The notes beneath the pieces were generated by a model. The model was given only the letters and a program-made list of their open reading frames with translations. It searched no databases and was not told the DNA's origin. From positions 768,001 to 832,000 of the forward strand of contig OY970303.1 of assembly GCA_963716255.1 (NCBI GenBank): a stretch of DNA of 64,000 nucleotides, in the 5' to 3' direction. Of this stretch, positions 7,885 to 59,318 are shown in pieces. A program made the translations under genes and the position numbers. Position 1 is the stretch's first letter. Every line of letters begins with the position of its first letter. Source of the stretch: an uncultured Gemmatimonadales bacterium (GTDB lineage Bacteria > Gemmatimonadota > Gemmatimonadetes > Longimicrobiales > Longimicrobiaceae).

Positions 7885-7886
7885 CC

Positions 7887-8864: not shown

Positions 8865-8998
8865 GGCGCGTGACGAGTCGGGTCGGGGAAAGCGGACCCT
8901 GTGGGGATTACGGGACGCGGGCCGGCGTGAAAGGCGCGCGGGGGAAACGAAGCGCGGCGGACGCGGGGCCGAGATGGCCCCGCGCCCGCCGCACTTTG

Positions 8999-9346: not shown

Positions 9347-9448
9347 TTGCGTCCTTCCGTTTGTGAGGATCGGTAGCCAGGCCCGCCCCCGCGGGCTATT
9401 CTTCCCCGCGTCCGAATCCACGCAAGAAACCAACCGTTGCGAGGCACG

Positions 9449-40596: not shown

Positions 40597-41544
40597 CTAT
40601 TCCAGGGGATATTGGACGTCAACCCCGTCCTCACGGGGCGGCGGGAGCATCCGTTCCTCCAGCCTCATCTCCGCCAGGCGGGCCCGGTCCCGCCGCCGGC
40701 GGAGCGCGAAGAGCACCACCAGCAGCCCCGCCGCGAGCACCCAGAACACCCCCGCCTGCGCGCCGACGAGGAGCCAGCCGTAGCGGCGGCGCACCCCGCG
40801 CGCCCACTCCTCCTCGAACTGCCCCATCGTCATCCCGTACGCCGAGCGGATCGCGCGGTCCAGCGTCCCCTCGCGCTTCCAGGCCTGCATCAGCAGCTCG
40901 AACCCGCCCGGCCCGCTGCGCTCCGCCAGGTGGCGCACCGCCGTCGCCGAAAGCAGGTAGGCGAGCCGCGCGTCCTCCTCCCCCGCCGGCCAGTCCAGCG
41001 AGATCGAGTCCAGCGGCGGCGCGCGCCCGGTGAGGAACGCCAGCCGCAGCTGCCACCCCGCTGACGCGTCCCACCCGCCCGAGGCCCACTGCGCGTACCC
41101 CTCGTCGAACCAGCGCGGCACGTTCTCCCCCAGCTCGCGGTGCACGGCCAGGTGGAGCAGCTCGTGGCGGAGCGTGGTCCCCAGGTCGCGGGGCTCCGAG
41201 CGCGGCGTGGCGTACAGGGGGAGGACGACGAGGCGCGCCGCGGGGAAGGCCACCCCGGCGCCCCACTCCGGGATGCGCCCGCCGGTGACCGAGTCCCACA
41301 CGGCGCGCGAGGGCGCCAGCACGATGGTCGCGGGGATGGGGCGGCGCGCGTCCGGGAAGCCGGGGAGCGGGAACGGTTCCAGCGAGGCCGCCAGCACCTC
41401 CTCCGCGCGAGGGCGGCTCCCGGGAAAGAACACCACCCGCACCGAATCCGCCATGAGCACCTGCCCTCCCCCGCCCGCCGCCGCCGGGGCCTGCGCGAGC
41501 GCCGCGCCCGCCCAGGCGAGCGCGAGCAGCAGCGCAGCGGTCAG
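40597..41544 (-). CDS. Peptidase MA-like (HExxH) metallohydrolase with C-terminal TM anchor
   Basis: LRHELLH, PRWFDEGYA, AY..S; signal-like N-terminus implies a CTGA-overlap start near 41544 (first ATG at 41454). Confidence 0.8.
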   Translation of the reverse strand: MTAALLLALAWAGAALAQAPAAAGGGGQVLMADSVRVVFFPGSRPRAEEVLAASLEPFPLPGFPDARRPIPATIVLAPSRAVWDSVTGGRIPEWGAGVAFPAARLVVLPLYATPRSEPRDLGTTLRHELLHLAVHRELGENVPRWFDEGYAQWASGGWDASAGWQLRLAFLTGRAPPLDSISLDWPAGEEDARLAYLLSATAVRHLAERSGPGGFELLMQAWKREGTLDRAIRSAYGMTMGQFEEEWARGVRRRYGWLLVGAQAGVFWVLAAGLLVVLFALRRRRDRARLAEMRLEERMLPPPREDGVDVQYPLE

Positions 41545-42404
41545 GCGGAAAAGGATACCGGCTCCCCCGCTTCCAGGCGCGCCAGGGCCTCGCCGCACCG
41601 CTCCCCCCAGGGGTTGAAGCGGTTGGTCTCCACGCCCTTGCGCCACGCCTCCGCGGCGTGGGCGGGGTCGCCGTCCAGGTAGTGCGCGTGTCCCAGCTCC
41701 CAGTACGCCTCGATCAGGTTGGGGCCCAGCTCCAGCGCCTTGCGGAAGAAGGAGCGTGCGTCGACGTACATCTCCCGCTCCAGGTACACCATCCCCATGT
41801 AGAGGTGCGCGTACAGCTGCGCCTTGCGGTCCGCCTCCTGGCGGATGGCGCGCGCCAGGTGCTCGATCGCCTCGCCGAAGATCCCCTTCTTGAGGCAGAT
41901 GTAGCCGACGTTCACCCGGGCCAGGGCGTTGTTCGGCTCCTTCATCAGCACCTTGGAGTAGGTGTACAGCGCCTCGTCGTACTGCTCCTGGAGCATCTGC
42001 GCCCACCCCAGCAGCGACTCCGCCCCGGGGTCGTTGGGGGCGAGCTCCAGCGCGCGGTTCAATTCCTTGACGGCGCGGGCGTGGTCGCCGGCGGCGATGG
42101 CGCTCCAGCCGCGCTCCACGTAGGTGCTGCTCCCCAGGTGGTCCGAGCGCGGCGGCGCGGCCGGGGCCATCCCGCGCGGCGTGGAGGCCGCGAGCGACTT
42201 GTAGCGGTCCACCAGCGCGCGGATCTCCTCCTTGAAGGCGGCGAGCTGCTCCAGGGCGCCCTCCGTTTCGCGGAACAGCTCCATGATGTCGCGCTTGATG
42301 CGGTCGCGCTCCTCCACCGGGGTGCCCGTGCCGGCGCCCGTGAGCGCGGCGTCGATCTCGTCGTAGCGGGTCCGCAGCGACCCGACGTACTGCTCGCGCG
42401 TCAT
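41541..42404 (-). CDS. Coiled-coil plus TPR protein
   Basis: N-terminal helical hairpin, about 5 TPRs, C-terminal NRFNPWG. Confidence 0.88.
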   Translation of the reverse strand: MTREQYVGSLRTRYDEIDAALTGAGTGTPVEERDRIKRDIMELFRETEGALEQLAAFKEEIRALVDRYKSLAASTPRGMAPAAPPRSDHLGSSTYVERGWSAIAAGDHARAVKELNRALELAPNDPGAESLLGWAQMLQEQYDEALYTYSKVLMKEPNNALARVNVGYICLKKGIFGEAIEHLARAIRQEADRKAQLYAHLYMGMVYLEREMYVDARSFFRKALELGPNLIEAYWELGHAHYLDGDPAHAAEAWRKGVETNRFNPWGERCGEALARLEAGEPVSFSA

Positions 42405-42928
42405 TCGCCTGCGCTCGCGGGGTTTTCGGGCTCCGATCCCGCGGCGTCCGGCAGGAGGTCCGCCGTTTCCAGGGCGATCCGCTCCTGGCTGCTGAGGATG
42501 CGCTCGATGTCGATCAGCACCACCAGGCGCGCCTCCAGCCGCACGATGCCGCGCACGAACTCCGCGGCCAGGCCGCGGATGTACGCGGGCGGCTCGGACA
42601 CCGCGGTCTCGGGGACGCGCAGCACCTCGGTGACGGCGTCAACCACCAGCCCCAGGCGCTCCCCGCCGTGCTCCACCAGCACCACGCGGGTCTCGTCGTT
42701 CACGGGCGCCTCGGCCAGCTCGAAGCGGCGGCGCATGTCCACCACGGGCACCAGCGTGCCGCGCACGTCGATCACCCCCTCCACGAACTCCGGGGCGCGC
42801 GGCACCGGCGTGGGCTCCGAGTAGCGCAGGATCTCGTGGACGGCGAACACGTCCAGACCGAACTCCTCCGGGCCGAGGCGGAAGGTCACGAGCTGGACCT
42901 GGGGAACGACTTGACGGACCTTTCTCAC
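42401..42928 (-). CDS. cheW: Chemotaxis adaptor CheW
   Basis: LVTFRLG.EEFG, P..PEFVEGVIDVRG..VPVVD, GLVVDAV. Confidence 0.93.
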   Translation of the reverse strand: MRKVRQVVPQVQLVTFRLGPEEFGLDVFAVHEILRYSEPTPVPRAPEFVEGVIDVRGTLVPVVDMRRRFELAEAPVNDETRVVLVEHGGERLGLVVDAVTEVLRVPETAVSEPPAYIRGLAAEFVRGIVRLEARLVVLIDIERILSSQERIALETADLLPDAAGSEPENPASAGE

Positions 42929-43419
42929 GGGGTCTCCCGGGTGGTCAGGGATGTGAAGTTCGACAGCACGGCCGCCAGGTCGAGGAGGGTCACCAGCGCG
43001 TCGCCGGCGCGCGCGACCCCCAGCACATGCTCCTCCTGCTCCGCGCCCCGCTGCGGCGCCGGACGGACGGCGGCGGCGGGGAACGCGGCCACCTCGCGCG
43101 CCTCGTCCACCGCCACGCCCACGCGGCGCTCGCCGGCGTCCAGCACCAGCACGTCCGGCGTCACCGTCTCCTCCAGGCGCAGCCCCAGCCCGGGGGCCAG
43201 GTCCAGCACCGGCACCAGCGAGCCGCGCAGGCGGATGACGCCCAGCAGGGGGCGCGGGAGGTCGGGGAGGGGGTGCACGCGCTGGCCGGTGACCACCTCC
43301 TCCACCAGCCGCACGTCGCAGGCGTGCAGCTCCCGCCCGATGCGGAAGACCACCCCGCGGAACTGCGCCTCGTCGATGTCGCCTTCGCGCGCGGGAAGGT
43401 GCGGATCGGGCACGCTCAC
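42925..43419 (-). CDS. cheW: Chemotaxis adaptor CheW (divergent)
   Basis: GTG at 43419; VVFRIG, LLGVIRLRG.LVPVLDL, GVAVD. Confidence 0.85.
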   Translation of the reverse strand: MSVPDPHLPAREGDIDEAQFRGVVFRIGRELHACDVRLVEEVVTGQRVHPLPDLPRPLLGVIRLRGSLVPVLDLAPGLGLRLEETVTPDVLVLDAGERRVGVAVDEAREVAAFPAAAVRPAPQRGAEQEEHVLGVARAGDALVTLLDLAAVLSNFTSLTTRETP

Positions 43420-44519
43420 CGGGCCTCCTGCGTGGCGGTGCGGACGGCCGCGGCGCGAACCTCGCCGGCGAGCGCGTCGGCGATGCGGTCCAGCGGGAGC
43501 ACGGAGGTGGCGTGCTCGGCGGCGGCGTGCGGCATCCCGTAGATCACCGAGGTGTGGCGGTCCTGGGCGATGCCGGAGCCCCCCGCGCGGACGATGGCGG
43601 CGAGCCCCTCGGCGCCGTCGCGCCCCATCCCCGTGAGCACCACGCCCACCGAGGCGGGGCCGTACGCGTCGGCGACGCTGCGGAAGAGCGGGTCGGCGGC
43701 GGGGCGAACCCCCCACACGGTGGGCTCGCGGTCCAGCGCGATGCGCGCGCCGGCCGCGCCCTGCACCACCCGCATGTGGAAGTCGCCCGGGGCCACGTAG
43801 ACGCGGCCCGCCAGCACCGGCTGGCCGTCCTCCGCCTCGGCGACGGGGAGAGGGCTCATGCCGTTGAGCCGCTCGGCCAGCGAGCGGGTGAAGCGCGCGG
43901 GCATGTGCTGCACCACCAGCACCGCGGCGCCCAGCCGCGCCGGCAGCCGGGGGACCAGCTCGGCCAGCGCCCGCGGCCCCCCGGTGGAGGCGGCCACCGC
44001 CACGGCCACCCCGGCGCCGGGGCCGCCGCCCTGGGAGGCGGCCCGCGGGGAGGCGGGCTCCGCGCCCCGTCGCGGCATGTGCACGCGGACGTTGGACAGG
44101 TTGGCGGCGGCGGCGGCGCGCAGCGCCTCCAGCAGCCGGTCGGACACCTTTTCCAGGTCCAGCGAGATGGTCCCCGAGGGCTTGGCGACGAAGTCCACCG
44201 CGCCGTAGTCCAGGGCGCGCAGCGTGGCCTCGCCGCCCTCGGTGGTGTAGGCGGAAAGCATCACCACGGGGCGCGGGGTCTCGCTCATGATGTACCCCAG
44301 CGCGCCCAGCCCGTCCAGCCCCGGCATCTCCACGTCCATGGTCACCAGGTCCGGGTCGTACTGGTGCACCTTGCGCAGGGCGTCCTCGCCGTCGCGGGCG
44401 GTGGCGACCACGCGGAACTCGTCGGTGCGCGACACCACGTCGGTGATGACGCGGCGCATGAAGGCGCTGTCGTCCACCACCAGCACGGTGATCGCGCCCC
44501 GCCGCTCAGAGCGCGACAT
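43416..44519 (-). CDS. cheB: Chemotaxis methylesterase CheB (REC plus esterase)
   Basis: VDDSAFMR, ASTGGP, QHMP, LTGMGRDG. Confidence 0.96.
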   Translation of the reverse strand: MSRSERRGAITVLVVDDSAFMRRVITDVVSRTDEFRVVATARDGEDALRKVHQYDPDLVTMDVEMPGLDGLGALGYIMSETPRPVVMLSAYTTEGGEATLRALDYGAVDFVAKPSGTISLDLEKVSDRLLEALRAAAAANLSNVRVHMPRRGAEPASPRAASQGGGPGAGVAVAVAASTGGPRALAELVPRLPARLGAAVLVVQHMPARFTRSLAERLNGMSPLPVAEAEDGQPVLAGRVYVAPGDFHMRVVQGAAGARIALDREPTVWGVRPAADPLFRSVADAYGPASVGVVLTGMGRDGAEGLAAIVRAGGSGIAQDRHTSVIYGMPHAAAEHATSVLPLDRIADALAGEVRAAAVRTATQEAR

Positions 44520-44997
44520 CGGGCCGCCCCACCGAGGACACCGTCACCCTTCCCTCTCCCACGTGGAAGCGGACCGAGCGCCCGTAGTCCGCCCCCACCT
44601 CCTCGCCGTGGATGGGGATGCGCAGCCTGCCGAGCGCCGCCCGCGCGGCGATCACGTTGCGCTCGCCCATGTTCAGCGTCCCGGGCGCCATCAGGCTGGC
44701 GAACATGGACGCGCCGCCCACCAGGCGCGCCTGCAGCCGCTCGCGGCGCCCGCCCAGCGCCACCACCTCGTCCGCCAGCAGCGGGACGGCGGTGGAGGCG
44801 AACTTGGACAGGTTGCTGGAGTCGCGCGCCAGCTGCTTCTCGGGGAGGAGCACGTGCGCCATCCCGCCCACCCGCGCCACCGGGTCGTGCAGCAGGATCG
44901 CCACGCACGAGCCCAGCCCCAGCGTCACCAGCGTGGCGTCGGCCCGCCCGACGGCGTGGTGCGCCACCTTCACGAAGATCTGACCTGCTGCCGTCAT
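44506..44997 (-). CDS. cheD: Chemoreceptor glutamine deamidase CheD
   Basis: TLGLGSCVA, GGMAHVLLP, GGASMF, GERN. Confidence 0.95.
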   Translation of the reverse strand: MTAAGQIFVKVAHHAVGRADATLVTLGLGSCVAILLHDPVARVGGMAHVLLPEKQLARDSSNLSKFASTAVPLLADEVVALGGRRERLQARLVGGASMFASLMAPGTLNMGERNVIAARAALGRLRIPIHGEEVGADYGRSVRFHVGEGRVTVSSVGRPDVAL

Positions 44998-45851
44998 GCG
45001 GGCTTCTGGAAGATGCGTTCCCGGTTGTTGACCGCGCGGAACATCCCGCGCGTGGGGCCGATCAGGGTCTCCACCTTGCCCAGGACCAGGAACCCGCCCG
45101 GGAGGAGCGCGTCGTAGAAGTGCTGGAACAGGCGCTCCTGGATCTCGCGGTCGAAGTAGATGATCACGTTGCGGCAGAAGATCAGGCTCTGCTCGCGGAG
45201 CGGCGGGTCGCTGATCAGGTCGCGCCGCACGAACGTGACGTTCCGCTTCGCCTCGGGGCGCAGGCGAAAGGGCGGCCCGGGAGAGAACCACCTGGCGCGC
45301 ACGGCGTCCGGCGTTTCCGTCAGCGAAAGCTCGGGGAACTCCGCGCGCGCCGCCGCCTCCAGGCTGCGCCGGTCGATGTCCGTGCCGGTGACGTGGAAGC
45401 GCGCCAGGTCGCCCGCGCGGCGGTGGCGCTCCGCCCACTCGTGCAGCAGGATGGAGACGGTGTACGCCTCCTCGCCGCTGGCGGAGCCGGCGCTCCAGAT
45501 GCGGTGCTGCGGGCGCGCCCAGTCGAACAGGCGCGGGATGACCACGTCCTCCACCACCTTCCAGGTGTCCGTGTTGCGGAACAGCTTGGTGACGTTGATG
45601 GTGAGCGTGTCCAGCAGCACGTCGTACTCGGCCGGCTCGGCGTCCAGGAGCCGCCCGTACTCGGCGAACGAGGCGCGGCCGCGGGCGCGCATACGCACCG
45701 CGATGCGGCGGCGCAGGCACTTGTCCTTGTAGAACTGGGTGTTGAAGCCCCGCTCGCGCTGGATCTTGACCTTGAGAAGCTCCAGCTCCTCGTCGTCGCC
45801 CTCCATCTGCGCGAAGGGAGTGCCCGGCTGCGGGCGCGGAGGAAAGCTCAT
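44994..45851 (-). CDS. cheR: Chemotaxis methyltransferase CheR
   Basis: LTINVTKLFRN, IWSAG.ASGEEAY, GTDID, IFCRNVIIYF. Confidence 0.95.
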   Translation of the reverse strand: MSFPPRPQPGTPFAQMEGDDEELELLKVKIQRERGFNTQFYKDKCLRRRIAVRMRARGRASFAEYGRLLDAEPAEYDVLLDTLTINVTKLFRNTDTWKVVEDVVIPRLFDWARPQHRIWSAGSASGEEAYTVSILLHEWAERHRRAGDLARFHVTGTDIDRRSLEAAARAEFPELSLTETPDAVRARWFSPGPPFRLRPEAKRNVTFVRRDLISDPPLREQSLIFCRNVIIYFDREIQERLFQHFYDALLPGGFLVLGKVETLIGPTRGMFRAVNNRERIFQKPA

Positions 45852-47467
45852 CGCAGCACCGTCTGCACCAGCTCCAGGTTGGTGCGCACCACCCCGTTCC
45901 CCGGGTTGAGCTCCAGCGCCCTCCTCCACAGCCGCACCGCTTCCTCCCGGTTCATCCGCTTGTAGTGGATGTTGCCCAGCTTGAAGTACGTGTCGTCCCC
46001 CAGGTCGGGGTCCAGCTCCAGCGCCCTTCCGTACGCCTCCGCCGCGTCGTCGTATGCGCCGCGGCGGTACAGCACGTCGCCCAGCGACTTGTGCGCCTGC
46101 GGCACGATCCCGTCCTCGTCCACCGCGCGCCGGTACAGCGCCTCGGCGTCCCGCCACTCCTGCCGCCGCTCGCGCACCGCGCCCAGGTGCAGCAGCAGCA
46201 GCGGCGCGTGGGGGTGCAGGCCGATCCCCTCCTCGCCCAGCCGCAGCGCTTCCGCGTCGCGCCCCGCCGCGGCCTCCGCCAGCACCGCGAAGGCGAAGTA
46301 CGCGGCCGGCGCCCTCCCCTGCCCCAGCGCCTCGCGGTAGGCGGCGAACGCCTCCGCGGCGGCGGGGGCGTCGCCCAGCTTGAGGCGCAGCACCGCGCGC
46401 GACAGCAGCACCTGCGGCCGCTTCGGCGCCAGGCGCGCGGCCTCCTCCACGGCGGCCAGGGCGTCCTCGGCGCGGCCGGCGCGCTCCAGGGCGAGCGCCA
46501 GGTTGTGGAAGGCGGCGGCGCGCGGGCCGCCCTGCTCGATGGTCTCCTTGAGCCAGCGCACCGCCGAGCGGTCGTCGCCCGTTCGCAGCCCGATCAGGGC
46601 CAGGTAGAAGCGCGCGTCGGCGCTCCCGGGCTGCAGCTCGGTCACCCGCCGGAACTCGCGGATGGCCTCCTCGTACATCCCCGTCTTGTAGAAGGCGATG
46701 CCCAGGTTGCGGTGCTCCTCGATGCGCGCCAGCGGCACCTCGCGCACCTCCACGGGGCGCTTGCGGCCCACGGGGTGGGCGAAGCCGGCCTGGATCAGCC
46801 CGAAGAGCGCCTTGCCCACGTCGAACTCCACCAGCCCGGACTCCTCCACCACCTCGTGCACGGTGCGCTTGCCGTCCACCAGGGGGATCACCTTGCGCTG
46901 CTCGTCGGTGAGGTCCACCCCCTCCAGCGGCCGGGCGCGGTCCATCTCGAAGATCAGGTCCAGCGAGGGGATGCGCTTCTCGACCAGGCTCCACTCGTCG
47001 ATCCGGCGCGCCCCTTCCAGCAGCAGGTTCTCCGGGTTGATGGAGACCAGCATCGCCCCCTCGGGCGGGCGCTGCTCCGCCTCGAAGTAGAACGAGCCCT
47101 GCGACCAGGTGAACAGGTAGTAGACCGCCTCCTCGATCTGGATGCGGATGTACTGCTCCAGCTGCTCGCGGGTGATGGAGCCGCGGCGGATGAGGATCTC
47201 GCCCAGCCGGATCTCGGGCTCGCGCGCCTGCTCGTCCACGGCGGCGGCGAGCGCGGCGGCCTCCAGCAGCCCGTTCTTGACCAGCAGGTCACCCAGGCGG
47301 TCGCGCCGGTTGACGATGGAGGCGTAGGTGATGCGCCCCCGGTCGAAGTAGATGTAGCCGAAGTTGGAGCGGTCGGTGACCGACAGGCACCCCGTCTTCT
47401 GCCCCATGGCCAGGAGCTGGAGGACGTCGGGGAGGCTGGCCTCCTTGAGGCTTCCCTTGATCGCCAT
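45848..47467 (-). CDS. DUF4388 (PATAN-like) plus TPR protein
   Basis: MAIKGSLKEASLPDVLQLL..GQKTGCL, LF.WSQG.F.FE, LLEGARRIDEW, C-terminal TPRs. Confidence 0.88.
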   Translation of the reverse strand: MAIKGSLKEASLPDVLQLLAMGQKTGCLSVTDRSNFGYIYFDRGRITYASIVNRRDRLGDLLVKNGLLEAAALAAAVDEQAREPEIRLGEILIRRGSITREQLEQYIRIQIEEAVYYLFTWSQGSFYFEAEQRPPEGAMLVSINPENLLLEGARRIDEWSLVEKRIPSLDLIFEMDRARPLEGVDLTDEQRKVIPLVDGKRTVHEVVEESGLVEFDVGKALFGLIQAGFAHPVGRKRPVEVREVPLARIEEHRNLGIAFYKTGMYEEAIREFRRVTELQPGSADARFYLALIGLRTGDDRSAVRWLKETIEQGGPRAAAFHNLALALERAGRAEDALAAVEEAARLAPKRPQVLLSRAVLRLKLGDAPAAAEAFAAYREALGQGRAPAAYFAFAVLAEAAAGRDAEALRLGEEGIGLHPHAPLLLLHLGAVRERRQEWRDAEALYRRAVDEDGIVPQAHKSLGDVLYRRGAYDDAAEAYGRALELDPDLGDDTYFKLGNIHYKRMNREEAVRLWRRALELNPGNGVVRTNLELVQTVLR

Positions 47468-49206
47468 CAGGCCAGCTCCTCGATGAGCCGGTCCTCCAGC
47501 GCGAGCGCCGACCAGGCCACCTTCTCGGTGTTGTAGAACCAGCGGTCCGTGCCGTCGGCGCGGGCGGCCGGAGCGGCAGGCTCCACGGCGGCCGGGGCCT
47601 CGTCGGCGGGGACGGCGTCGGGGGAGGGGGGCGCGGCGGCCAGGTCCACCACCAGCCCGCCCTCGAAGCGGGAGCGCAGCCGCGCGTCCAGCGCCGCCAG
47701 CTCGCGCGGCGCGCGGTCGGCGGCGGCGGCCACCTGCACGTCGGAGCGCAGCAGCGCGTCCAGCAGGTAGAACACCTCCTCCTGCACCCGCTCGTCGGCG
47801 GGCAGCTCCTGCAGGCCGTCCACCAGCAGCAGGTCGGCGGCGCGGTAGCGGCGGCGCCACGCCTCCGCGGCGCCGGCGCGCAGCGCGGGCGCCAGCTCCC
47901 GGGCGACGGCGCCCGCGCGCAGCCAGGCCACCCGCGAGTCCGGCCGCTCGGCCAGCGCCGCGCGCCCCACGGCGGCCAGCAGCTCCGCCGCGCCGGGGCC
48001 GTGGAGGAAGAGCGGGTTGTATCCGGCGGCGGGGGGCCCCAGCGCGCGCCGCGCCGAGCGCACCGACAGCGACTCCGCGCCCAGCCGCCCGGCCAGCTCG
48101 TCCAGCCCGGGTCCCTCGGGCGGCGCCGCGAGCGGCGCCGACGTGACGCGGGCCAGCTCCACCAGCGCCTCCGCCTCGTCCACCCGGTCCGGGTCGCGCA
48201 GGGTCGGGGACGCGGCGGCGGCGGGATCCAGCGCGCGCAGCTCCGCCCCGGCGGCGCGCAGGCGCTCCACGTCGGCGGCGAAGGCGGCGACCAGCGCGTC
48301 CACGTCGGGGGCGGAATCGGCCTCCAGCGCGTCCTCCAGGCGGCGGGTGCGCACGCCCTCCCCCTCCCAGCGCAGGATCGCCGCGCCCAGCGCCCGGCGC
48401 CACGGCGCGGCCTCCACCATCTCGGCGACGGTGAGGGTGATGTCGGAAAGGAAGGCGCCGAACTCGTCGGCGGCGAGGGCGCGCTCCGCGCTCATCCCCA
48501 GCAGCGGCCCCACCTCCTCCGCGGCGACCGGGCGCCCCTCGGCCTCCTGTGCGGCGAGCACGCGGTTCAGCCCGCCCTGGAGCTCGCGCACGCTCGCCCA
48601 TCCCAGCCCGCCCAGCGCTTCGGCCACGCCCGCACCCAGGGTCGCTCCGCGCTCGGCGGCCATGCGCCGCGCGATCGCGACGCGCGTCTCGGTCTCGGGC
48701 GGGGTCACGTCCACCAGCAGCCCGGCGGCCAGGCGGGAGACCAGGCGCGGGTCCAGCCCCTCGATCTCGCCCGGCGGCCGGTCGGAGGCGAGCACCACCT
48801 GCGCCCCGGCGCGCGACATGTCGTCCCACACGCGCAGCAGCTCGTCCTGGGTGCGCCCCTTGCCGCCCAGGAACTGCACGTCGTCCAGCAGGAGCAGGTT
48901 GACGCGGCGGTACTCGTCGCGGAAGGCGTCCAGCGTCCCCGCGGCCAGCGCGGCGCTCACCCCGTCCACCACCTCCTCCACGGTGCGGTACGCCACGCGC
49001 AGCTCGGGGCGCACGGTGCCGGCCAGGTGCCCCACCGCCGTGAGCAGGTGCGACTTCCCCATCCCCGGGCCGCCGTAGACCACGAGCGGGTTGTAGCTCG
49101 TCCCGGGCGACTCCGCGGCACGGCGCGCGGCGGCCGCGGCCAGGCGGTTGCTCGGCCCGACGACGAAGCCCTCGAAGGTGAGGCGGGGGTCCAGCGGGGA
49201 GGTCAT
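47467..49206 (-). CDS. DnaA/Hda-like protein with tandem AAA+ domains and no DNA-binding domain IV
   Basis: TFEGFVVGPSN, YNPL..YGGPGMGKSHLL, LLLDDVQF, SDRPP, RL.SR, VRELQG; second degenerate copy YNPLFLHGPG, LLLVDGLQ, RLRSRFEGGL. Confidence 0.88.
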   Translation of the reverse strand: MTSPLDPRLTFEGFVVGPSNRLAAAAARRAAESPGTSYNPLVVYGGPGMGKSHLLTAVGHLAGTVRPELRVAYRTVEEVVDGVSAALAAGTLDAFRDEYRRVNLLLLDDVQFLGGKGRTQDELLRVWDDMSRAGAQVVLASDRPPGEIEGLDPRLVSRLAAGLLVDVTPPETETRVAIARRMAAERGATLGAGVAEALGGLGWASVRELQGGLNRVLAAQEAEGRPVAAEEVGPLLGMSAERALAADEFGAFLSDITLTVAEMVEAAPWRRALGAAILRWEGEGVRTRRLEDALEADSAPDVDALVAAFAADVERLRAAGAELRALDPAAAASPTLRDPDRVDEAEALVELARVTSAPLAAPPEGPGLDELAGRLGAESLSVRSARRALGPPAAGYNPLFLHGPGAAELLAAVGRAALAERPDSRVAWLRAGAVARELAPALRAGAAEAWRRRYRAADLLLVDGLQELPADERVQEEVFYLLDALLRSDVQVAAAADRAPRELAALDARLRSRFEGGLVVDLAAAPPSPDAVPADEAPAAVEPAAPAARADGTDRWFYNTEKVAWSALALEDRLIEELA

Positions 49207-49210
49207 GCGG

Positions 49211-49825
49211 CTAGCCGGCGTCGGCCGCGAGCGGACGGTTGAAGCGCTGCGACAGGCGGCGGAGCACGTGCTCGCTGATCCCGCGCAGCGTGTCGAACAC
49301 CCCCGCCCCGGCGAGGGCGCGCGCCTCGTAGCGCGGCAGGTCGCGGTAGTTGAGGAGGTCGTCCATCTCCTCCGTGGAAAGCACGTCGGGGAGGTCGCGC
49401 TTGTTGTACTGGAGCACCAGGGGGATGGTGCGCGGGTCGGTCCCCTGCTCCAGCAGGTTGACCTGCAGGTTCCTGAAGCTTTCCAGGTTCTCCTCCTGCT
49501 GCATGCGCTGCGAGTCGGCCACGAACACCACCCCGTCGGCACCCTGCAGCACCAGCTTGCGGGTGGCGTCGTAGTACACCTGCCCGGGGACGGTGTAGAG
49601 CTGGAAGCGCGTCTGGAACCCCGAGATCGCCCCCAGCTCCAGCGGGAGGAAGTCGAAGAACAGCGTGCGGTCCGTCTCGGTCGCCAGGGAGATCATGCGC
49701 CCCTTGCGGTCGTCCGGGACCTGCGAGTGGATGTACTGCAGGTTGGTCGTCTTCCCCGACCGCCCGGGGCCGTAGTAGACGATCTTGCAGGTGATCTCTC
49801 GGGTCGAGTAGTTGACCAGCGACAT
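49211..49825 (-). CDS. mglA: MglA-family small GTPase
   Basis: KIVYYGPGRSGKTTNL, TETDRTLFFD, LYTVPGQ, YNKRD. Confidence 0.96.
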   Translation of the reverse strand: MSLVNYSTREITCKIVYYGPGRSGKTTNLQYIHSQVPDDRKGRMISLATETDRTLFFDFLPLELGAISGFQTRFQLYTVPGQVYYDATRKLVLQGADGVVFVADSQRMQQEENLESFRNLQVNLLEQGTDPRTIPLVLQYNKRDLPDVLSTEEMDDLLNYRDLPRYEARALAGAGVFDTLRGISEHVLRRLSQRFNRPLAADAG

Positions 49826-49835
49826 GGCTATCGCC

Positions 49836-50315
49836 TCACCGGGATCCGAAGAAGTGGTCCAGCCCGGCCTCCAGGTCCTTCTCGAAGGCCGCGGCGTCCG
49901 CCGTGGGGCGCGTCTCCCGCCAGCCGGGGAGGGCGGCCACCTCCTGCATCAGCGTGTTGAAGAAGACGCGCACCAGCCCGATGGACGAGTCGTCGCCGAA
50001 GACCGCGACCAGGATCAGCTCCTCGGCGGGGGTGGCGAAGGAGCCGATGAACACCTGGTCCCGCCCGCCGCCCTGGTGCAGGTGGTGGAAGCCGCGCTGC
50101 CCCAGGAGGGCGGCGATGGCGCGCGACGAAGCGTGGATCCCCGCTCCCAGCGCCGCCACCCCCATCACGTCCAGCGCGCGCGCGAACCCCCGCTGCGCCA
50201 GCACCTGGCCGCTCTCGTTGATGAGCAGCACCAGCCGCGTCCCCGCCTCGCGGGTGAAGCGCTCGACCGGCCCCGCCAGGTCGCCGACGAACTTTTCCAG
50301 GTCGCCGCGCCTCAT
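49836..50315 (-). CDS. mglB: MglB-like Roadblock/LC7 protein
   Basis: LLINESGQVL, AAL.AG......IA.LLG..F..L..G, LVAVF....IGLVR; directly upstream of mglA. Confidence 0.85.
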   Translation of the reverse strand: MRRGDLEKFVGDLAGPVERFTREAGTRLVLLINESGQVLAQRGFARALDVMGVAALGAGIHASSRAIAALLGQRGFHHLHQGGGRDQVFIGSFATPAEELILVAVFGDDSSIGLVRVFFNTLMQEVAALPGWRETRPTADAAAFEKDLEAGLDHFFGSR

Positions 50316-50353
50316 GCGGGGTCCCGTCGGAACAGAATTGAACTGCCGGGTTC

Positions 50354-50481
50354 GGGCGTGCCCCCGGCTGCGCCGGGGTCGGGCTGCGGCTCCGTAAGCG
50401 AGCAAACAACGCTCGCTAACGGAGGCGAGCCCGCGCAAACAGCCGCGCGGTCTCGCCGCTTCGCGCTCGCATCCCTCACGC
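50354..50481 (-). repeat. Multi-hairpin intergenic repeat (family A), copy 4
   Basis: Reverse complement of the 20670 element with compensatory stem changes. Confidence 0.88.
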
Positions 50482-50538
50482 GGGCCCGCGCTGGCGTCCG
50501 CGGGGCACCACGCCGCGCCCTCCACTCCCCCGTGTCAT

Positions 50539-50597: not shown

Positions 50598-50951
50598 TCA
50601 TTGCAGCGCACCGGCGGCGCGGGCGGCCTCCAGGCGGACGAGCCCCACGTTCACCCAGCGCTCGGCCACCACCACCAGCAGCAGGTCGCCCATCTCCGGG
50701 GGGGCCGCGGCGAAGAGGAAGCCGTCGTCGCCCTCCACCTGGAGGAACGAAGCGCTCCCGAACGACGCCGCCCGGACGGACCTGCGCGCCCGCCGGAAGA
50801 GAGACGCCACCAGCGCCGCCACCGCGGGCCCGGGGACGCCGATCATCAGGTCGGCCTCCACCACCAGCCCGTCCTCGGCGGCCACCACCATGGAGCCGCG
50901 CACCCCGGGGATGCGGTTGATGACCGACAGCTGCTCCGCGAACGCGCTCAC
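50598..50951 (-). CDS. Roadblock/LC7 protein
   Basis: IPGVRGSMVV..EDGLVV, VAAL.AS, VNVGLVRLE; GTG start. Confidence 0.88.
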   Translation of the reverse strand: MSAFAEQLSVINRIPGVRGSMVVAAEDGLVVEADLMIGVPGPAVAALVASLFRRARRSVRAASFGSASFLQVEGDDGFLFAAAPPEMGDLLLVVVAERWVNVGLVRLEAARAAGALQ

Positions 50952-51811
50952 CCCTGTCCTCCCCCGTCCCCGGTCCCCAGGAGCCGCGCCGCCACCGACG
51001 AGGCGCGCGCCGCGATCCGCAGCGCCCAGCCGGTGGGCACCTCGCGGCTGGCGGCCAGCGCCAGCATGGCGTCGTCGGCCGCGGGCGCGATGCGGACGGT
51101 CGTCTCCGGCGTCTCCACCAGCATCCCCCGCCACGTCCCCAGCCCCAGGTGCCGCAGCGCCCGCTCCGCCTCGGCGGAGGCGCCGTGCAGCGCAGCCGCC
51201 ACCTCCGGCGCGCGGTCGACGCCCTCCGCGCGCATCTCCCCCGCGACCACGAAGCCCTGCGCGTCCATCAGCAGCGCGCCCAGGATGCCACGCTCCGCGG
51301 TGAGCGAGCGGAACTCCGCCTGCGCGGCGTCCCACGGCGCCGGGGCGGGCGCGGGCGGAGCGGCGGGCCCGGCGGGCGGCGGGCTCGGCGCCGGCGGCTC
51401 CCCGGACTGCGCCCGGGAGCGGGCGAGCGCGTCCCGGACGTCCTCGTCGGCGGGATTGGCGGCGGCGGCGCGCTCCAGGTGGCGCAGGGCGCTCCCCCAC
51501 TCGCCGCGCTCGGCGCACACCAGCCCGATCTCGCGGCGGGCGCCGGCGTGCTCGGGGTCCAGGCTGAGCGCCATGTCCCACTCGTCGAAGGCCTTGACCG
51601 GCTCGCCGCCCTCGCGGTACAGCAGCCCCAGGAGGTAGTGCGCCTCCACGTTCGTGGGGTTGCGCTCCAGCCCCCGCAGGCACAGCCGCAGCGCGGCGTC
51701 GCGGCGCCCCGCCTGGCGGTACGCCTCGGCGAGCGGGAGAAAGGCGAGCGTCCCCGGGTCCCGGGCGACCTCCTCGCTCCAGGCGCGGATCTGCGCGGGG
51801 GTGGCGCTCAT
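50948..51811 (-). CDS. TPR plus Roadblock/LC7 fusion protein
   Basis: DP...AF.PLAE.YR TPRs, Pro-rich linker, GILGALLMDAQGFVV Roadblock. Confidence 0.85.
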   Translation of the reverse strand: MSATPAQIRAWSEEVARDPGTLAFLPLAEAYRQAGRRDAALRLCLRGLERNPTNVEAHYLLGLLYREGGEPVKAFDEWDMALSLDPEHAGARREIGLVCAERGEWGSALRHLERAAAANPADEDVRDALARSRAQSGEPPAPSPPPAGPAAPPAPAPAPWDAAQAEFRSLTAERGILGALLMDAQGFVVAGEMRAEGVDRAPEVAAALHGASAEAERALRHLGLGTWRGMLVETPETTVRIAPAADDAMLALAASREVPTGWALRIAARASSVAARLLGTGDGGGQG

Positions 51812-52950
51812 CCGCCCTCCTCGTCCAGCACGGCCCGCAGCGAGGCCGCCGCCTTTCGCGCCCGCTCCGCGGTGGAGCGGCGCGCGGGATCGGCCTCGGC
51901 GAGGCGCAGGTAGGTGCCCCACGCCTCCCCGGCGCGCTCCAGGTTGCCGGTGCGCGCCGCCGCGAAGCCCAGGTGGAAGTGCGCCGCGGGGAGGAGCGGG
52001 TCCAGCGAGATCACCCGGTCCAGCGCCAGGCAGGCCTCGGTCCAGCGCCCGGCGGCGGCGTGCGCCCTCGCCAGCAGCGCGTGCACCTCGGGGCGGTCGG
52101 GGTAGCCGCGCGCCAGGTCGCCCAGCACGCGAAGGGCGCGCGAGGGATTGCCCTCGCGAAGCGCGGCGTGGCCGGCGGCCAGCCCCTCGAAGAGGGTGGC
52201 GTCGCCGGGCGCCTCCGCCACGGCCACCGGCGACGGCTCCTCCGCGATGTCCACCACGCCGGTGGAGACCAGCCCGTAGACGATCTTGGCGACGTCGAAG
52301 TCGCTGCGCCCCAGGTCCGAGGCGATCTCCTTGAGCGGGCGCACCCCGTCGATCTCGGCGAGCACCTCCCACTCGCTGGGGTGCAGGTCGAGCACCCCCT
52401 CGTCCGCGCCCTCGCCGGTGAGCGCGGGGACCACCGCCATGTGCGGGATCTTCGCCTCCAGCGTGCTCCACTCGTCGATGCGCCGCGCCGCCTCCATCAG
52501 CAGCGACTCGGTGGGGACGCGCACCGCCACGCCGCCGGGCTCCGCGGGCGCGGACTCCTCGAAGCGGAAGTAGCCGTCCTTCCACTGGATCAGGTCGAAG
52601 ACGATCTCCTCGATCTGGAAGCGGAGCTGCCGCTTGAGGTCCGTCTCGGAGACGGCGCCCATCTCCACCAGGATGGTGCCGATGCGCCGGCTGGTATCCT
52701 GCCGCTGCAGCTGCACCGCGCGGTTCACCTGCGCCTCGGTGACCTTGCCGGCCATGAGCAGCAGGCGGTCGATGCGCCCCGTGCTCCCCGCCAGCTCGGC
52801 GCCCACCACGGCGCCCCGCTCGAAGCGGATCGAGGCCCGGCGCCCGGCGGCGTCGCCGGTGACGGTGAGCAGCCCCGTCTTCCGCGACAGGTCCAGGAGC
52901 TGGAAGACGTCGCTGAGCGCCAGCTCGCGGATCGGTCCCTCGATCGCCAT
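51808..52950 (-). CDS. DUF4388 plus TPR protein
   Basis: MAIEGPIRELALSDVFQLLDLSRKTG, WKDGYFRF, LMEAARRIDEW; paralog of 45848-47467. Confidence 0.88.
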   Translation of the reverse strand: MAIEGPIRELALSDVFQLLDLSRKTGLLTVTGDAAGRRASIRFERGAVVGAELAGSTGRIDRLLLMAGKVTEAQVNRAVQLQRQDTSRRIGTILVEMGAVSETDLKRQLRFQIEEIVFDLIQWKDGYFRFEESAPAEPGGVAVRVPTESLLMEAARRIDEWSTLEAKIPHMAVVPALTGEGADEGVLDLHPSEWEVLAEIDGVRPLKEIASDLGRSDFDVAKIVYGLVSTGVVDIAEEPSPVAVAEAPGDATLFEGLAAGHAALREGNPSRALRVLGDLARGYPDRPEVHALLARAHAAAGRWTEACLALDRVISLDPLLPAAHFHLGFAAARTGNLERAGEAWGTYLRLAEADPARRSTAERARKAAASLRAVLDEEGG

Positions 52951-52957
52951 GGCGCCG

Positions 52958-55711
52958 TCAGGCCGGCTGGAGGGCGGCGTCGCCCGTGCGGAAGATGCGC
53001 GCGAACTCCATCGCCGCGGCCACGTTCTCCCTCGCGCGCGCCGCCAGCTCGCCGTCCGGGTCCGCGTCGATGGTGTCGCGCCAGTGGCCGATGGCGTCGC
53101 GGAAGCGGCGCTCCTCCCCGGCGACGACGCCCAGGTAGAAGGAGGCCCCCGCGTGCCGCGGGTCGAAGCGCAGCACGCGGCGGAAGGCCTGCCGCGCGTC
53201 GTCGCGGCGCCCCTCGTCCAGCAGCACCCGGCCCAGCAGGATCAGCGCGTCGAAGTGGTACGGGTCGTCGGCCAGCAGCTCCACCAGCGCGCCGACGGCC
53301 TCGCCCGTGCGCCCCGCGCGCCACTCGGCCCGCGCGAGGAGCTGCAGGGCGTCGGGGTAAGTGGGGAGCAGGTCCAGCGCGGCGCGCGCCTCGGCGGCGG
53401 CCTCCGCGGGGCGGTCGGTGTCCAGCAGCAGGCGCCCCAGCTCCAGGCGCGCGCCCACGAACTCGGGGTCCAGGCGCACCGCCTCGCGCAGCGCGGCCTC
53501 GGCCTCGGCGCGGCGCCCGGCCAGCGCTTCCGCGCGCCCCAGCGAGCGCAGCGTCGCCGGGTCCGCCGGGTCCAGCGCCCGCACCCGCGCGAACACGTCC
53601 GCGGCGGCCCCGCCCTCGCCGCCGCGCAGAAGCGTCTCGCCCAGCACGCGCAGGTTGGCCGCGTCGTCGGGGGTGTGCGCGCGGGTGGCCTCCGCGGCGG
53701 AGCGCGCCTCGTCCAGCCGCCCCAGCTGGAGCAGCGCCCGCGCGCGCCCCACGGCGGCGCGCCGGTGGGCGGGGGACCACTGCGCGTCGTCCAGCCGCGC
53801 CAGCGCCGCGTCGAAGCGCTCCAGCGCCTCGCCGTCCAGCCCCTGCCGCAGGAACGTTTCCGCGGTGAGCAGCGCCGCCTCCACCGGGTCGCCGCCGGCC
53901 AGCGCGGCGCGGCGGATCTCGGCGAGGGCGCGCTCCAGCAGCCCCTTGGACAGGTAGTCCCCGGCCAGCGCGAAGGCGTCCGCCGGCGGAATCGCGGCGG
54001 GCGTCTCCGGCTCCGCCCTGGGCGCGATCTCGCCGAACAGGGCGTCCAGCGCGCCCGCGTCGAAGGTGAAGCTCGCCACCCCCTCCTCCTCGCCGGACAC
54101 GCGCTCGGCGGCGTCCAGGTCGGGGGCGGGGATCTCCGCGTACTCGAACTGCAGCTCGATGGCGAGCCGGTAGCGCGGGGTGGTGTAGTACGGGTTCAGC
54201 TCCAGCGCGCGCTTGGTCTCGCGCAGCGCGCCCTCGAAGTCGCCCAGGTTGGACAGGACGAAGCTGAGGTTGTAGCGCGCCTCCGCCGAATCGGGGTCGG
54301 CCTCCACCGCCCGCGCGAAGGCGTTGCGCGCCTCGTCGTAGCGGCGCGACTCCATCAGCACCGAGCCCACCCCGTTCCATGCCGCCGCCGAGGCGGGGTC
54401 GGCGTCCAGCCCGCCGCGGAAGGCGTCCAGCGCCTCGCGGTGGCGGCCGCGCCGCAGGTACATCAGCCCGCGGTTGCACCAGGCCTCGGTGAACGCAGCG
54501 CGCAGCCGCACCGCCTCGGCGAAGGAGCGCTCGGCCCCCTCCGGGTCGGCGCGGTGGGTGCGGGCCACGCCCAGGTTGTTCCAGGCCAGCGCGTACGCCG
54601 GGTCGGTCTCGATGGCGCGGCGGTAGCTGTCCTCCGCGCCCGCGACGTCGCCGGTCTGGTGGAGGCACACGCCCCGCTCGTTCCACAGCTTGGGGCTCCC
54701 CTCGTCCTCGGCCAGCAGCCGGTCGTACAGGTCCAGCGCCGGCCCCGTCTTCCCCTGGAGGAGGTGCACCTCCGCCATCCCCTGACGCACCAGCCCCGCG
54801 TCCTCGCCCCCGGAGAGCGCCCGGTCGAACTCGCGCAGCGCCTCGTCGTACAGCCCCTTCTGGCGGAAGGCGACGCCCAGGTTGTAGTGGGCCAGGAACT
54901 CCCCGGTGGCGATCTCCGGGCGGCGCACTCGCTCCCCCACCAGCTCGCGGTAGCGGGCGGTGCTGTAGCGGTCCAGGCTGAGGTTGGTCTGCGCCTTCGC
55001 CAGCTGCGGGTTGAGCTGCATGGCGCGGCGGGACGAGGCCGAGGCCTTTTCCATCTCGCCCAGGTCGCCCCACACGAAGGCGAGCACGTGGTGCGCGTCC
55101 GCCAGCTCCGGGTGCAGCTCGATGGCGCGCACCAGCTCGCGGCGCGCCTCCTCGTTGAGCCCCCGGTTGTAGTACAGCTCCCCCTGGTAGAAGTGGAGCA
55201 CGGCGCTGTCCGGGTCCAGCTCCAGCGCGCGCCGGAACCACTCCATCGCCGCCTCGAAGCTCCCCCCCGCCTTTTCCGCCTGCCCCAGCCGGATCAGCGT
55301 TTCCAGGTCGTCGGGGACGTGCCCGAGCAGGCGCCGCAGCTCCGCCACGGCGCCGGCGCTGTCGCCGGTGTGCAGGTACGCCTGGGCCAGGCGGGTGCGC
55401 GCGTCGGCGTCGGCCGGGTCCTCGCGCAGCCGCTCGCGCAGCTCCGCGATCATCCGGTCGTAGTAGCCGGTGGCGAAGTAGGCGATCTCCAGGTTGCGCT
55501 GCGCCACCTGCATCTTGGGGTCGATCTCCAGCGCGCGCTGGAACTGCGAGATCGCCTCCTCGTACAGCCCCTTGTTGAAGTACAGCACCCCCAGGTTGTT
55601 GTGCGCGCCCGCATCCGCCGCGTCGATCCGCTGGGCGAAGCCGCGGAGGATGCGGAGGTCGCGCTCCGAGCGCGGGGCGCGTGCCTGGGCGTTGGGGGCG
55701 AGCTCCTGCAC
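52958..55711 (-). CDS. Large cytoplasmic TPR protein
   Basis: About 20 TPR units (AHNNLGVLY, AHYNLGVAF, AWNNLG); no signal peptide. Confidence 0.9.
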   Translation of the reverse strand: MQELAPNAQARAPRSERDLRILRGFAQRIDAADAGAHNNLGVLYFNKGLYEEAISQFQRALEIDPKMQVAQRNLEIAYFATGYYDRMIAELRERLREDPADADARTRLAQAYLHTGDSAGAVAELRRLLGHVPDDLETLIRLGQAEKAGGSFEAAMEWFRRALELDPDSAVLHFYQGELYYNRGLNEEARRELVRAIELHPELADAHHVLAFVWGDLGEMEKASASSRRAMQLNPQLAKAQTNLSLDRYSTARYRELVGERVRRPEIATGEFLAHYNLGVAFRQKGLYDEALREFDRALSGGEDAGLVRQGMAEVHLLQGKTGPALDLYDRLLAEDEGSPKLWNERGVCLHQTGDVAGAEDSYRRAIETDPAYALAWNNLGVARTHRADPEGAERSFAEAVRLRAAFTEAWCNRGLMYLRRGRHREALDAFRGGLDADPASAAAWNGVGSVLMESRRYDEARNAFARAVEADPDSAEARYNLSFVLSNLGDFEGALRETKRALELNPYYTTPRYRLAIELQFEYAEIPAPDLDAAERVSGEEEGVASFTFDAGALDALFGEIAPRAEPETPAAIPPADAFALAGDYLSKGLLERALAEIRRAALAGGDPVEAALLTAETFLRQGLDGEALERFDAALARLDDAQWSPAHRRAAVGRARALLQLGRLDEARSAAEATRAHTPDDAANLRVLGETLLRGGEGGAAADVFARVRALDPADPATLRSLGRAEALAGRRAEAEAALREAVRLDPEFVGARLELGRLLLDTDRPAEAAAEARAALDLLPTYPDALQLLARAEWRAGRTGEAVGALVELLADDPYHFDALILLGRVLLDEGRRDDARQAFRRVLRFDPRHAGASFYLGVVAGEERRFRDAIGHWRDTIDADPDGELAARARENVAAAMEFARIFRTGDAALQPA

Positions 55712-55712
55712 G

Positions 55713-56330
55713 TCAGGCCAGGCGGATGTGCTCGAGGATGATCTGCAGCGACTCCACGTCGGGGAGGAGTAGGAAGTGCCCCTGCACCGAGGTCTCTTCC
55801 TCCATCTTGAACTCCGTCTGGATGCAGAAGACGTAGTCGCGCTCGTGCCCGAAGTTGGTGTACGCCGTGGTGAGCACCGCGCCCGCCAGGTCGATGACCA
55901 GCGACGGCACCGAGGGAAGCAGCATCATCCCCATGAAGTCGGAGAGCGCGTTCATGTACGCCGCCGACAGGATGTTGCCCGCCTCCTTGATGGCCGACTG
56001 CTCCAGCTCGCCGAAGACGTGCGAGTTGCCCGGGGGCCGGTGCAGCAGGATCTCGGACAGGCGCATGGCCGAGGTGCGCGGAAAGATCAGCAGCGTGCGC
56101 CCGGTGAGGTCGCCCAGCATGTGCATGAGCACCGCCGCCACCACCTCCTCGGAGCCGCTCAGCAGCTCGGGGACGTCCTCCAGCGGCGCCACCTGCAGCT
56201 GCGGCACGGTGATCATGATCCGGCTCTTCGTCATCTGCGAGAGCGCGGTCGCGGCGTGCCCCGCGCCCATGTTCGCCACCTCGCGCAGCGCGTCGAGCTG
56301 AATGGCCTCAAGGTCTCGGATGTCGATCAT
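55713..56330 (-). CDS. cheC: CheY-P phosphatase CheC
   Basis: DALREVANMGAGHAATALS and SAIKEAGNIL (two ExxN motifs), PSVP. Confidence 0.95.
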   Translation of the reverse strand: MIDIRDLEAIQLDALREVANMGAGHAATALSQMTKSRIMITVPQLQVAPLEDVPELLSGSEEVVAAVLMHMLGDLTGRTLLIFPRTSAMRLSEILLHRPPGNSHVFGELEQSAIKEAGNILSAAYMNALSDFMGMMLLPSVPSLVIDLAGAVLTTAYTNFGHERDYVFCIQTEFKMEEETSVQGHFLLLPDVESLQIILEHIRLA

Positions 56331-56367
56331 CGGTGGGCCCGGTCTCTGTGCGTAGGTTGCGGCGCGC

Positions 56368-58326: not shown

Positions 58327-58341
58327 GGAGGACAACGAGGA

Positions 58342-58425
58342 AGGTTACAGGTTACAGGAGACAGGTTACAGCCAACCAGGGAGACAGCAGCTGAAGGCTG
58401 TCCCCTGTAACCTGTTCCCTGTCCC
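58342..58425. repeat. Inverted heptamer tandem arrays between cheY and cheA
   Basis: aggttac-aggttac-aggagac-aggttac facing tgtcccc-tgtaacc-tgttccc-tgtcccc. Confidence 0.7.
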
Positions 58426-58788
58426 CTATCCCAGCACGCGCTGGACGGCTTCGAGGACGCGCGAAGGCTGGAACGGCTTCACCACGAAGTCGCGCGCGCC
58501 GGCCTGGATCGCCTCGATCACCAGCGCCTGCTGCCCCATGGCGCTGCACATGAGGACCTTGGCGCCCGGGTCTTCCTTGACGATCTCGCGGACGGCGTCG
58601 ATCCCGCCCATGTCGGGCATGACGATGTCCATGGTCACCAGGTCCGGCTTGAGGGTGCGGTACTTTTCCACCGCCTGCAGCCCCGTCTCCGCCTCGCCCA
58701 CGATCTGGAAGCCGGCCTGCGTCAGGATGTCGCCGATCATGGTGCGCATGAAGATCGCGTCATCGCAGATCAACACGGTCTGAGCCAT
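58426..58788 (-). CDS. cheY: Response regulator CheY
   Basis: CDDAIFMR, TMDIVMP, CSAMGQ, FVVKPF (Bacillus/Thermotoga-type CheY). Confidence 0.95.
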   Translation of the reverse strand: MAQTVLICDDAIFMRTMIGDILTQAGFQIVGEAETGLQAVEKYRTLKPDLVTMDIVMPDMGGIDAVREIVKEDPGAKVLMCSAMGQQALVIEAIQAGARDFVVKPFQPSRVLEAVQRVLG

Positions 58789-58829
58789 CAATCCTCCAGT
58801 GGAAGAGGTGTGAGCGGAAGTGGAATGCG

Positions 58830-59318
58830 CTACGCGAGGATGGGACGGAAGATCTCGTCCGGGTCCACGGCGACGAAGATGCGGTCGTCCGTCTCCCCCA
58901 CCCCCAGCAGGTAGGACCGGTCGATGCGGAGCGAGCGGAGCAGGTCGGCGCCCATCTCCAGGTTGTCCAGGTCGGCGCGGACGATGCGCGACACCTCCCG
59001 CACCGCCAGCCCCACCAGCCGCCCGCCGTGCTCCAGCACCACGATGCTGTGGTCGGGGTCGGCGGAGGCCGCCGGCAGCTCCAGCCGCGCGCCCAGGTCG
59101 ATCACCGTGACGATGCGCCCGCGCAGGTTGATCAGCCCGCACACGTACGGCTCGCTCCCCGGGAGCGGCGTGTACGGCCGCGGCGGGATGATCTCGCGGA
59201 TGGAGCGGATCGCGACGCCGAACCAGTGCTCCGCCACGCCGAGCAGGACGATGCGCTCCGCGGACGCTTCCGCGGCGAACAGGTCATCCACGTCGTGTGT
59301 GGTCTGGAGGTCGTGCAT
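58830..59318 (-). CDS. cheW: Chemotaxis adaptor CheW
   Basis: IREII, PLPGS..YVCGLINLRGRIVTVIDL. Confidence 0.92.
   Translation of the reverse strand: MHDLQTTHDVDDLFAAEASAERIVLLGVAEHWFGVAIRSIREIIPPRPYTPLPGSEPYVCGLINLRGRIVTVIDLGARLELPAASADPDHSIVVLEHGGRLVGLAVREVSRIVRADLDNLEMGADLLRSLRIDRSYLLGVGETDDRIFVAVDPDEIFRPILA

Follow-up and report, generated by a model that had tools for sequence, protein, structure and literature searches.

The gene at 47467..49206 of the window, by which we mean the whole 64,000-nucleotide stretch analysed here from an uncultured Gemmatimonadales bacterium (GenBank assembly GCA_963716255.1, contig OY970303.1, positions 768,001 to 832,000), encodes a 579-residue protein, P0001, in which two modules of the DnaA domain III type stand in tandem. 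Domain III is the replication engine of DnaA and, in Hda, its regulator. P0001 belongs to a family that is real, conserved and undescribed in the literature searched, and that, judged by the defining features of those proteins, is neither DnaA nor Hda. Because some relatives shrink the protein to two short motifs, the ATPase modules may be an add-on to an adaptor. We propose, at about even confidence, that the family serves through these motifs as an adaptor for the PATAN-TPR output of an MglA/Che system that steers type IV pili, and that the DnaA-type modules probably act as an oligomerisation switch. All genes and protein segments of the window given below lie on the minus strand; G000 is the genome of the window, and other G, P and L codes denote compared genomes, proteins and loci.

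Results

An earlier note, made from the letters of the window alone, had read this gene as a DnaA-derived double ATPase without a DNA-binding domain. Its coordinates for the reading frame proved exact, and every motif that it quoted was found. As it expected, a Pfam scan of P0001 gave two Bac_DnaA stretches (E 4e-80) and matched neither Bac_DnaA_C nor DnaA_N. The second half, with its own Bac_DnaA stretch and 39% identity to the first over 158 residues (E 5e-28), is AAA+-like as claimed. Domain 1 (residues 5-237; 48496..49194) is a complete domain IIIa+IIIb according to Pfam, residue comparison, AlphaFold model and Foldseek, its best Foldseek match being domain III of Bacillus subtilis DnaA (8bv3; TM(target) 0.94, root-mean-square deviation 1.6). 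The fold begins at residue 5, without a domain I (DnaA_N), and domain 1 keeps the Walker A GKS, the Walker B DD, the sensor I D, the arginine finger and the sensor II R. It is followed by core motif 1, an acidic and aromatic helix (residues 246-264; 48415..48471), and by a three-helix linker domain that belongs to no Pfam family (residues 266-356; 48139..48411). Domain 2 (residues 365-522; 47641..48114) is a domain IIIa only: a three-residue deletion removes Walker A, D-G replaces the D-D of Walker B, and the helical lid with sensor II is missing from both alignment and model, while the two box VII arginines, R509 and R513, are retained. The protein ends in core motif 2, a C-terminal tail (residues 556-579; 47470..47541) whose spacing pattern, E-K-x-x-W-x-W-x4-D-R-h-h-E-E, is fixed in 105 sequences.

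The AlphaFold model, a monomer built from a 29-sequence alignment, has a mean predicted local distance difference test (pLDDT) score of 88 and a predicted template modelling (pTM) score of 0.48. It places a complete domain III at residues 1-240, a low-confidence stretch at 241-265, a confident helical linker at 268-356 and a lidless domain IIIa reaching to about residue 522, followed by a low-confidence C-terminus. No helix-turn-helix follows domain 2 in the model, and with Bac_DnaA_C also unmatched the predicted absence of domain IV held; nor did any of 71 two-domain open reading frames (ORFs), some genomes being counted twice, match domain IV. Every folded domain scores above 85, and motif 1 and the tail, both predicted to be disordered alone, score under or near 50-57, a pattern that would suit segments folding upon contact with a partner.

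The two low-confidence motifs are the parts of the protein that persist when all else is lost. Among 52 genomes that lack the linker, 45 also lack a DUF4388 match with the query used, and in each of the seven that have one the gene is preceded by an ORF with the tail. Six of these ORFs are minimal forms of about 60-100 residues (69-73 where the start is listed) that consist of the helix corresponding to residues 246-264 and the tail, without either ATPase (G036, G047, G052, G072, G074 and G114; three genera); the seventh is a tandem form with both ATPases, helix and tail, from which the linker has been deleted. In the five minimal forms scored, the helix scored 12-18 bits, where background reached 7.3 at most, and the tail 9-32 bits, with a background maximum of 8.9. 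No DUF4388-TPR gene was found without an ORF bearing motif 1 and the tail in the linker-less genomes examined, and in three minimal-form genomes examined its product is shortened by loss of the last TPRs (430, 430 and 477 residues against about 540). Neither the minimal ORFs nor the tail matched a Pfam or NCBIfam model, and matches of the tail in the PDB were rejected as beta-propeller repeat artefacts.

The linker and tail also occur behind unrelated N-termini (P0230, P0203, L042). In L042 (about 7800-9450; G050:C50), P0167 and P0203, a second linker and tail copy lies outside the operon, after an unrelated cysteine-containing N-terminal domain. P0230 joins them to a TPR N-terminus resembling the TPR-roadblock gene of the operon and has no ATPase. 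P0191, a candidate linker-DUF4388 fusion, looks like a frameshift artefact.

The gene for the DUF4388-TPR protein is also the most constant neighbour of the family. It lies immediately downstream in all 29 of the best foreign loci, with mglA upstream in 28; in a second set of 29 named loci the counts were 26 and 27. In G116 the P0001-type gene and DUF4388-TPR are retained with no mgl or che neighbours. The linkage to mglA, noted earlier, and the setting in a polarity and chemosensory operon are conserved across the loci compared, as is the gene order of the operon. MglA itself stands as a conserved neighbour, but the tightest linkage is to DUF4388-TPR.

Phylogeny points to the origin of the family. 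A homologue search returned proteins labelled Longimicrobiaceae and Gemmatimonadota, all tandem matches being Gemmatimonadota. The only other match in G000 was the canonical dnaA, to whose product domain 1 is 43% identical. This true dnaA was located, as anticipated, elsewhere: it lies beside dnaN, about 2.3 Mb away, and encodes 466 residues with all domains (DnaA_N, Bac_DnaA and Bac_DnaA_C). In a maximum-likelihood tree of 84 domain III sequences, whose bootstrap had not fully settled, clades were formed by the domain 1 copies (100/95), the domain 2 copies (100/97) and both combined (100/94), and 15 of 17 Gemmatimonadota DnaAs joined the combined clade at 96/93. This tree bears out the DnaA origin supposed in the earlier note. 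By its topology the family is a DnaA-type AAA+ lineage derived from the dnaA of its own class, with a duplication of dnaA early in the class, then an internal duplication, as the best fit. Searched with a profile of the linker, which is specific to the family, 99 of 151 phylum genomes (a tally that includes two unpublished genomes) gave a match, a single one in each except one genome; families f7 and f9-f12 gave no linker-profile match.

The linker folds in the model as a confident three-helix bundle. It has no Pfam or PDB sequence family and no usable ESM Atlas match; Foldseek gave no match under E 0.001, and the best VIA hits (Z 6.1) were generic three-helix bundles. A full-library search with the linker profile listed 147 new proteins, 28 with at least three copies, and the two repeat proteins that carry names are from Thermoplasmata. 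When a profile of 201 repeat units was run against 82,479 genome ORFs, the P0001 linker came first at E 2e-9, with the next match at 0.42; the repeat proteins having first been found via the linker, this test is reciprocal rather than independent. Linker and repeat profiles aligned at 98.7% (E 4e-16) in HHalign. By these profile comparisons the linker is homologous to the tandem repeats of the Thermoplasmata proteins.

Those proteins (P0091, P0105, P0106, P0111; L369:9130-13350, L373:6296-13335, L371, L372, L368) have a DUF2226-like start, about eight three-helix repeats and a canonical DnaA domain III without domain IV, usually with a double zinc ribbon; at two loci an ATPase-less paralogue adjoins the repeat protein. 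DUF2226 was above cut-off in one of four N-termini scanned and aligned weakly with PATAN (HHalign 1.5-6%, E 0.006-0.035), and PF09987 had no match in G000. Six genome loci carry the archaeal ATPase motif, all labelled archaeal and four of them Thermoplasmata or Thermoplasmatota. In quick trees, 10 of 11 archaeal ATPases formed their own clade, and an approximately unbiased test (p 0.515) failed to reject a single clade with the P0001 family. At L093:768-4344, an Endomicrobia DnaA domain III protein without domain IV and with none of the motifs of the family is encoded two genes after pilT.

The surrounding genes form a co-oriented run. It begins with cheW, cheY, cheA and cheC (55713..59318), continues with genes for a 917-residue TPR protein and a second DUF4388-TPR protein (51808..55711), a TPR-roadblock protein and a second roadblock protein (50598..51658), the MglB-type roadblock (49836..50315) and the MglA-type small GTPase (49211..49825), and so encodes three roadblock domains ahead of the P0001 gene. 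The latter starts 4 bp past the mglA stop, and its stop overlaps the start of the DUF4388-TPR gene (45848..47467) by one base (TGATG). After that gene come cheR, cheD, cheB, a CheW-like ORF, cheW and a TPR gene (41541..45851). The PATAN domain of the DUF4388-TPR protein contains an inserted MshE-type cyclic di-GMP (c-di-GMP) motif at residues 57-108; the motif is absent in G036 and G047 and apparently also in G052, G072 and G074, that is, in five of the six minimal-form genomes. Five genomes of genus g24 (L036-L040) keep cheA/C/Y and the P0001-type gene, have a strongly diverged MglA (32-41%) and gave no cheR/D/B matches at these loci. A second MglA paralogue in G000 (C1:1249946-1250524) is 60% identical to that of the operon; most class members have two MglAs, and a paralogue of this kind is found in genomes without the operon too. 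Metatranscriptome contigs from three studies span parts of the operon at 85% likeness and, coming from relatives, are no proof of its transcription. Upstream of mglB, the intergenic element at 50340-50510 has at least 500 BLAST matches in the genome, which accounts for the high metatranscriptome contig depth there, and no Rfam match of note.

Discussion

The constant gene pairing, together with the persistence of motif 1 and the tail after the ATPases and linker are gone, points to the DUF4388-TPR protein as the probable partner of the family. In the proposed adaptor role, both motifs would fold upon binding this PATAN-TPR protein, and domain 1 would bind ATP. An arginine finger from domain 2 or from a neighbouring molecule would then enable oligomerisation with domain 1 in the fashion of DnaA; the nucleotide-dead domain 2 of P0001 could still donate such a finger. 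By oligomerising, the protein may gather the PATAN-TPR output into clusters or set it free; acting below MglA and the Che pathway, that output would direct type IV pili at a pole. In the parts of the literature consulted, PATAN genes are described as neighbours of mglA (PMC4316618), and PATAN domains as binding PilB1/PilC, of the pilus motor, in Synechocystis (bioRxiv 10.1101/2021.06.11.447907). All 99 carrier genomes have a PilB-type match and 25 have flagellin above cut-off (hand count); G000 has four PilT-family genes, nine chemoreceptors above cut-off and no flagellin match.

Several observations weigh against this proposal. PilB is found in 48 of 52 non-carriers as well, so pili are not singled out. 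Domain 2 is not docked on domain 1 in the monomer model (pTM 0.48). The sensor II arginine is present in 7 of 36 forms without domain 2; its loss from most of them means that domain 1 there may not hydrolyse ATP. The minimal forms come from three genera only and may represent two or three events. Finally, at all 80 downstream starts a Shine-Dalgarno-like site for the following gene is supplied by the last codons of the tail, and this overlap could explain part of both the conservation of the tail and the linkage to DUF4388. Mutual-information coevolution of the protein with DUF4388-TPR or MglA (about 90 pairs, effective sequence number 41-59) was dominated by hub columns, even in an MglA-MglB control.

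An alternative that we consider unlikely is a link to the cell cycle, also raised by the earlier note, in which polarity or motility would be coupled to the state of replication by modules that co-assemble with DnaA or attach to single-stranded DNA of the origin. Descent from the DnaA of the class and the retained arginine-finger face favour it. So does a comparison with the residues of B. subtilis DnaA reported to contact single-stranded DNA and the DnaA-trio (N187, I190, I193, R202, K222 and E228; PMC10721633, consulted in part), positions that map without gaps. Most are kept in domain 2 of the family (I190 as I/V in 59 of 64, R202 in 64, K222 in 46 and E228 in 64), and forms without domain 2 carry a K-x-R-T loop in domain 1 instead. 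However, the adenine-reading N187 is replaced in both domains, by E in 55 of 68 copies of domain 1 and by D in 45 of 64 copies of domain 2, and domain 2 of P0001 has lost the I190, R202, K222 and E228 positions. Domains I and IV are lacking, the gene lies far from dnaA-dnaN, an Hda-like beta-clamp motif (by a consensus pattern) was absent from all 111 sequences, and the six minimal-form genomes keep the operon with neither ATPase.

Somewhat less probable again is a RomR-like role, in which the tail binds a roadblock dimer of the MglC/MglB type, or MglA, as polar anchor or GTPase regulator. In the part of PMC12719032 consulted, RomR binds MglC through E390, K391 and W394, and the E-K-x-x-W spacing of the tail equals theirs; mglA is adjacent, the operon encodes three roadblock domains, and G000 has no RomR C-terminal match. 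Homology of the tail to RomR was nevertheless rejected, since profile searches in both directions, with 82 distinct RomR-type C-termini, stayed at background; the best score was 4.6 bits, a level that 64 of 82,479 ORFs reached. Several minimal forms lack E-K or the first W, the G114 minimal form has no mglB or roadblock matches nearby, and the G116 gene has no nearby mglA.

The earlier note favoured a pair of one active and one pseudo-ATPase acting as a switch, which as an obligatory mechanism of the family now appears improbable. The pairing does hold for P0001 and its close relatives P0002-P0004 and P0006, which share the Walker A deletion. Their dead domain 2 is nonetheless conserved: it is 84-95% identical, compared with 94% for domain 1, and shows no nonsynonymous and five synonymous changes over 80 codons relative to L293. 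Across the family, the sensor I residue of domain 2 is frequently missing (D in 20 of 64). Against the pairing stand the forms of the wider family. Of 112 sequences collected, 17 were excluded because of a tail pattern or incompleteness, among them P0001 and its nearest relatives; the rest comprise 49 long and 10 lidless forms, with domain 2 Walker A intact in 47 and 7, respectively, and 36 forms without domain 2. In the de-duplicated set, the Walker A lysine is kept in 68 of 68 copies of domain 1 and 59 of 64 of domain 2, and the arginine finger in 63 of 64 copies of domain 2; six genomes lack both ATPases. The loss of Walker A from domain 2 is thus true of P0001 and specific to its lineage: by this comparison the nucleotide-dead, lidless domain 2 is a stage of decay there, not a design of the family. 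Least probable of all is that the whole gene is a dnaA duplicate in decay, retained chiefly because it couples the translation of mglA and DUF4388. Lid, domain 2, linker and domain 1 were indeed lost stepwise across lineages, the tail codons overlap the next ribosome-binding site, and in one copy (G127; L045:8826-10924) a frameshift, through sequencing error or decay, separates domain 1 from the linker. On the other hand, a single intact copy persists in about two thirds of the phylum sample, the catalytic residues of domain 1 are near invariant, and the internal helix scores well above background in minimal forms.

Beyond the adaptor role in this phylum, a wider possibility is offered tentatively: that DnaA domain III, freed of the part that reads DNA, attached to a three-helix repeat and linked with PATAN- or DUF2226-type outputs, may be a general signalling ATPase. 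It would occur as two genes in a pilus-polarity operon in Gemmatimonadetes and as one fused protein in Thermoplasmata, with the domain-IV-less DnaA beside pilT in Endomicrobia as a further instance. If so, a replication initiator would have given rise to a class of nucleotide-switched scaffolds that spans two domains of life and has not been described.

Full-text searches, with most subscription journals outside their scope, returned no publication on the P0001 family or on DUF2226; the neighbourhood supplement of PMC4316618 may list the gene. Of known proteins, the closest is DnaA (PF00308 domain III; B. subtilis 8bv3/8btg), which shares its fold and catalytic motifs with P0001 and whose Gemmatimonadetes representatives branch with both modules. 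P0001 differs in its two tandem modules, the lack of domains I, II and IV, the loss of N187, the novel linker and tail, its position away from dnaN and its dispensability in relatives. It scores 343.8 against a cut-off of 343.9 in TIGR00362, and genes of the family are routinely mislabelled dnaA, which affects origin prediction and marker-gene work. Hda likewise is a DnaA-type AAA+ protein without domain IV that keeps the arginine finger, and databases label relatives of P0001 'DnaA/Hda family protein'. P0001 nevertheless lacks the N-terminal clamp-binding extension of Hda (about 10 residues before the fold), scores 97.9 against a TIGR03420 cut-off of 194.8, is much closer to DnaA, is tandem and lies in a polarity operon. 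The MglA/MglB/RomR-MglC module of Myxococcus and the cyanobacterial PATAN regulators are built from the same kinds of part (small GTPase, roadblocks, PATAN, TPR and a Che pathway); in contrast, no DnaA-type ATPase is described there in the portions of that literature consulted, and the tail of P0001 is not detectably homologous to RomR. The Thermoplasmata proteins (P0091, P0105, L369, L373) also combine the three-helix unit in one protein with a DnaA domain III that lacks domain IV, but they have about eight repeats, one fully canonical ATPase after them, neither motif 1 nor tail, and no mglA among the listed neighbouring ORFs. What is new relative to all of these is the existence of minimal forms made of helix and tail alone and a linker shared with Thermoplasmata DnaA-III proteins, the latter extending the matter past one phylum. 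The natural deletion series of 645, 579, 395 and about 70 residues exposes a putative minimal binding element. With a copy of DnaA domain III established within an operon for polarity and chemosensing in most of a major soil class, the initiator fold seems to have been put to a use outside replication.

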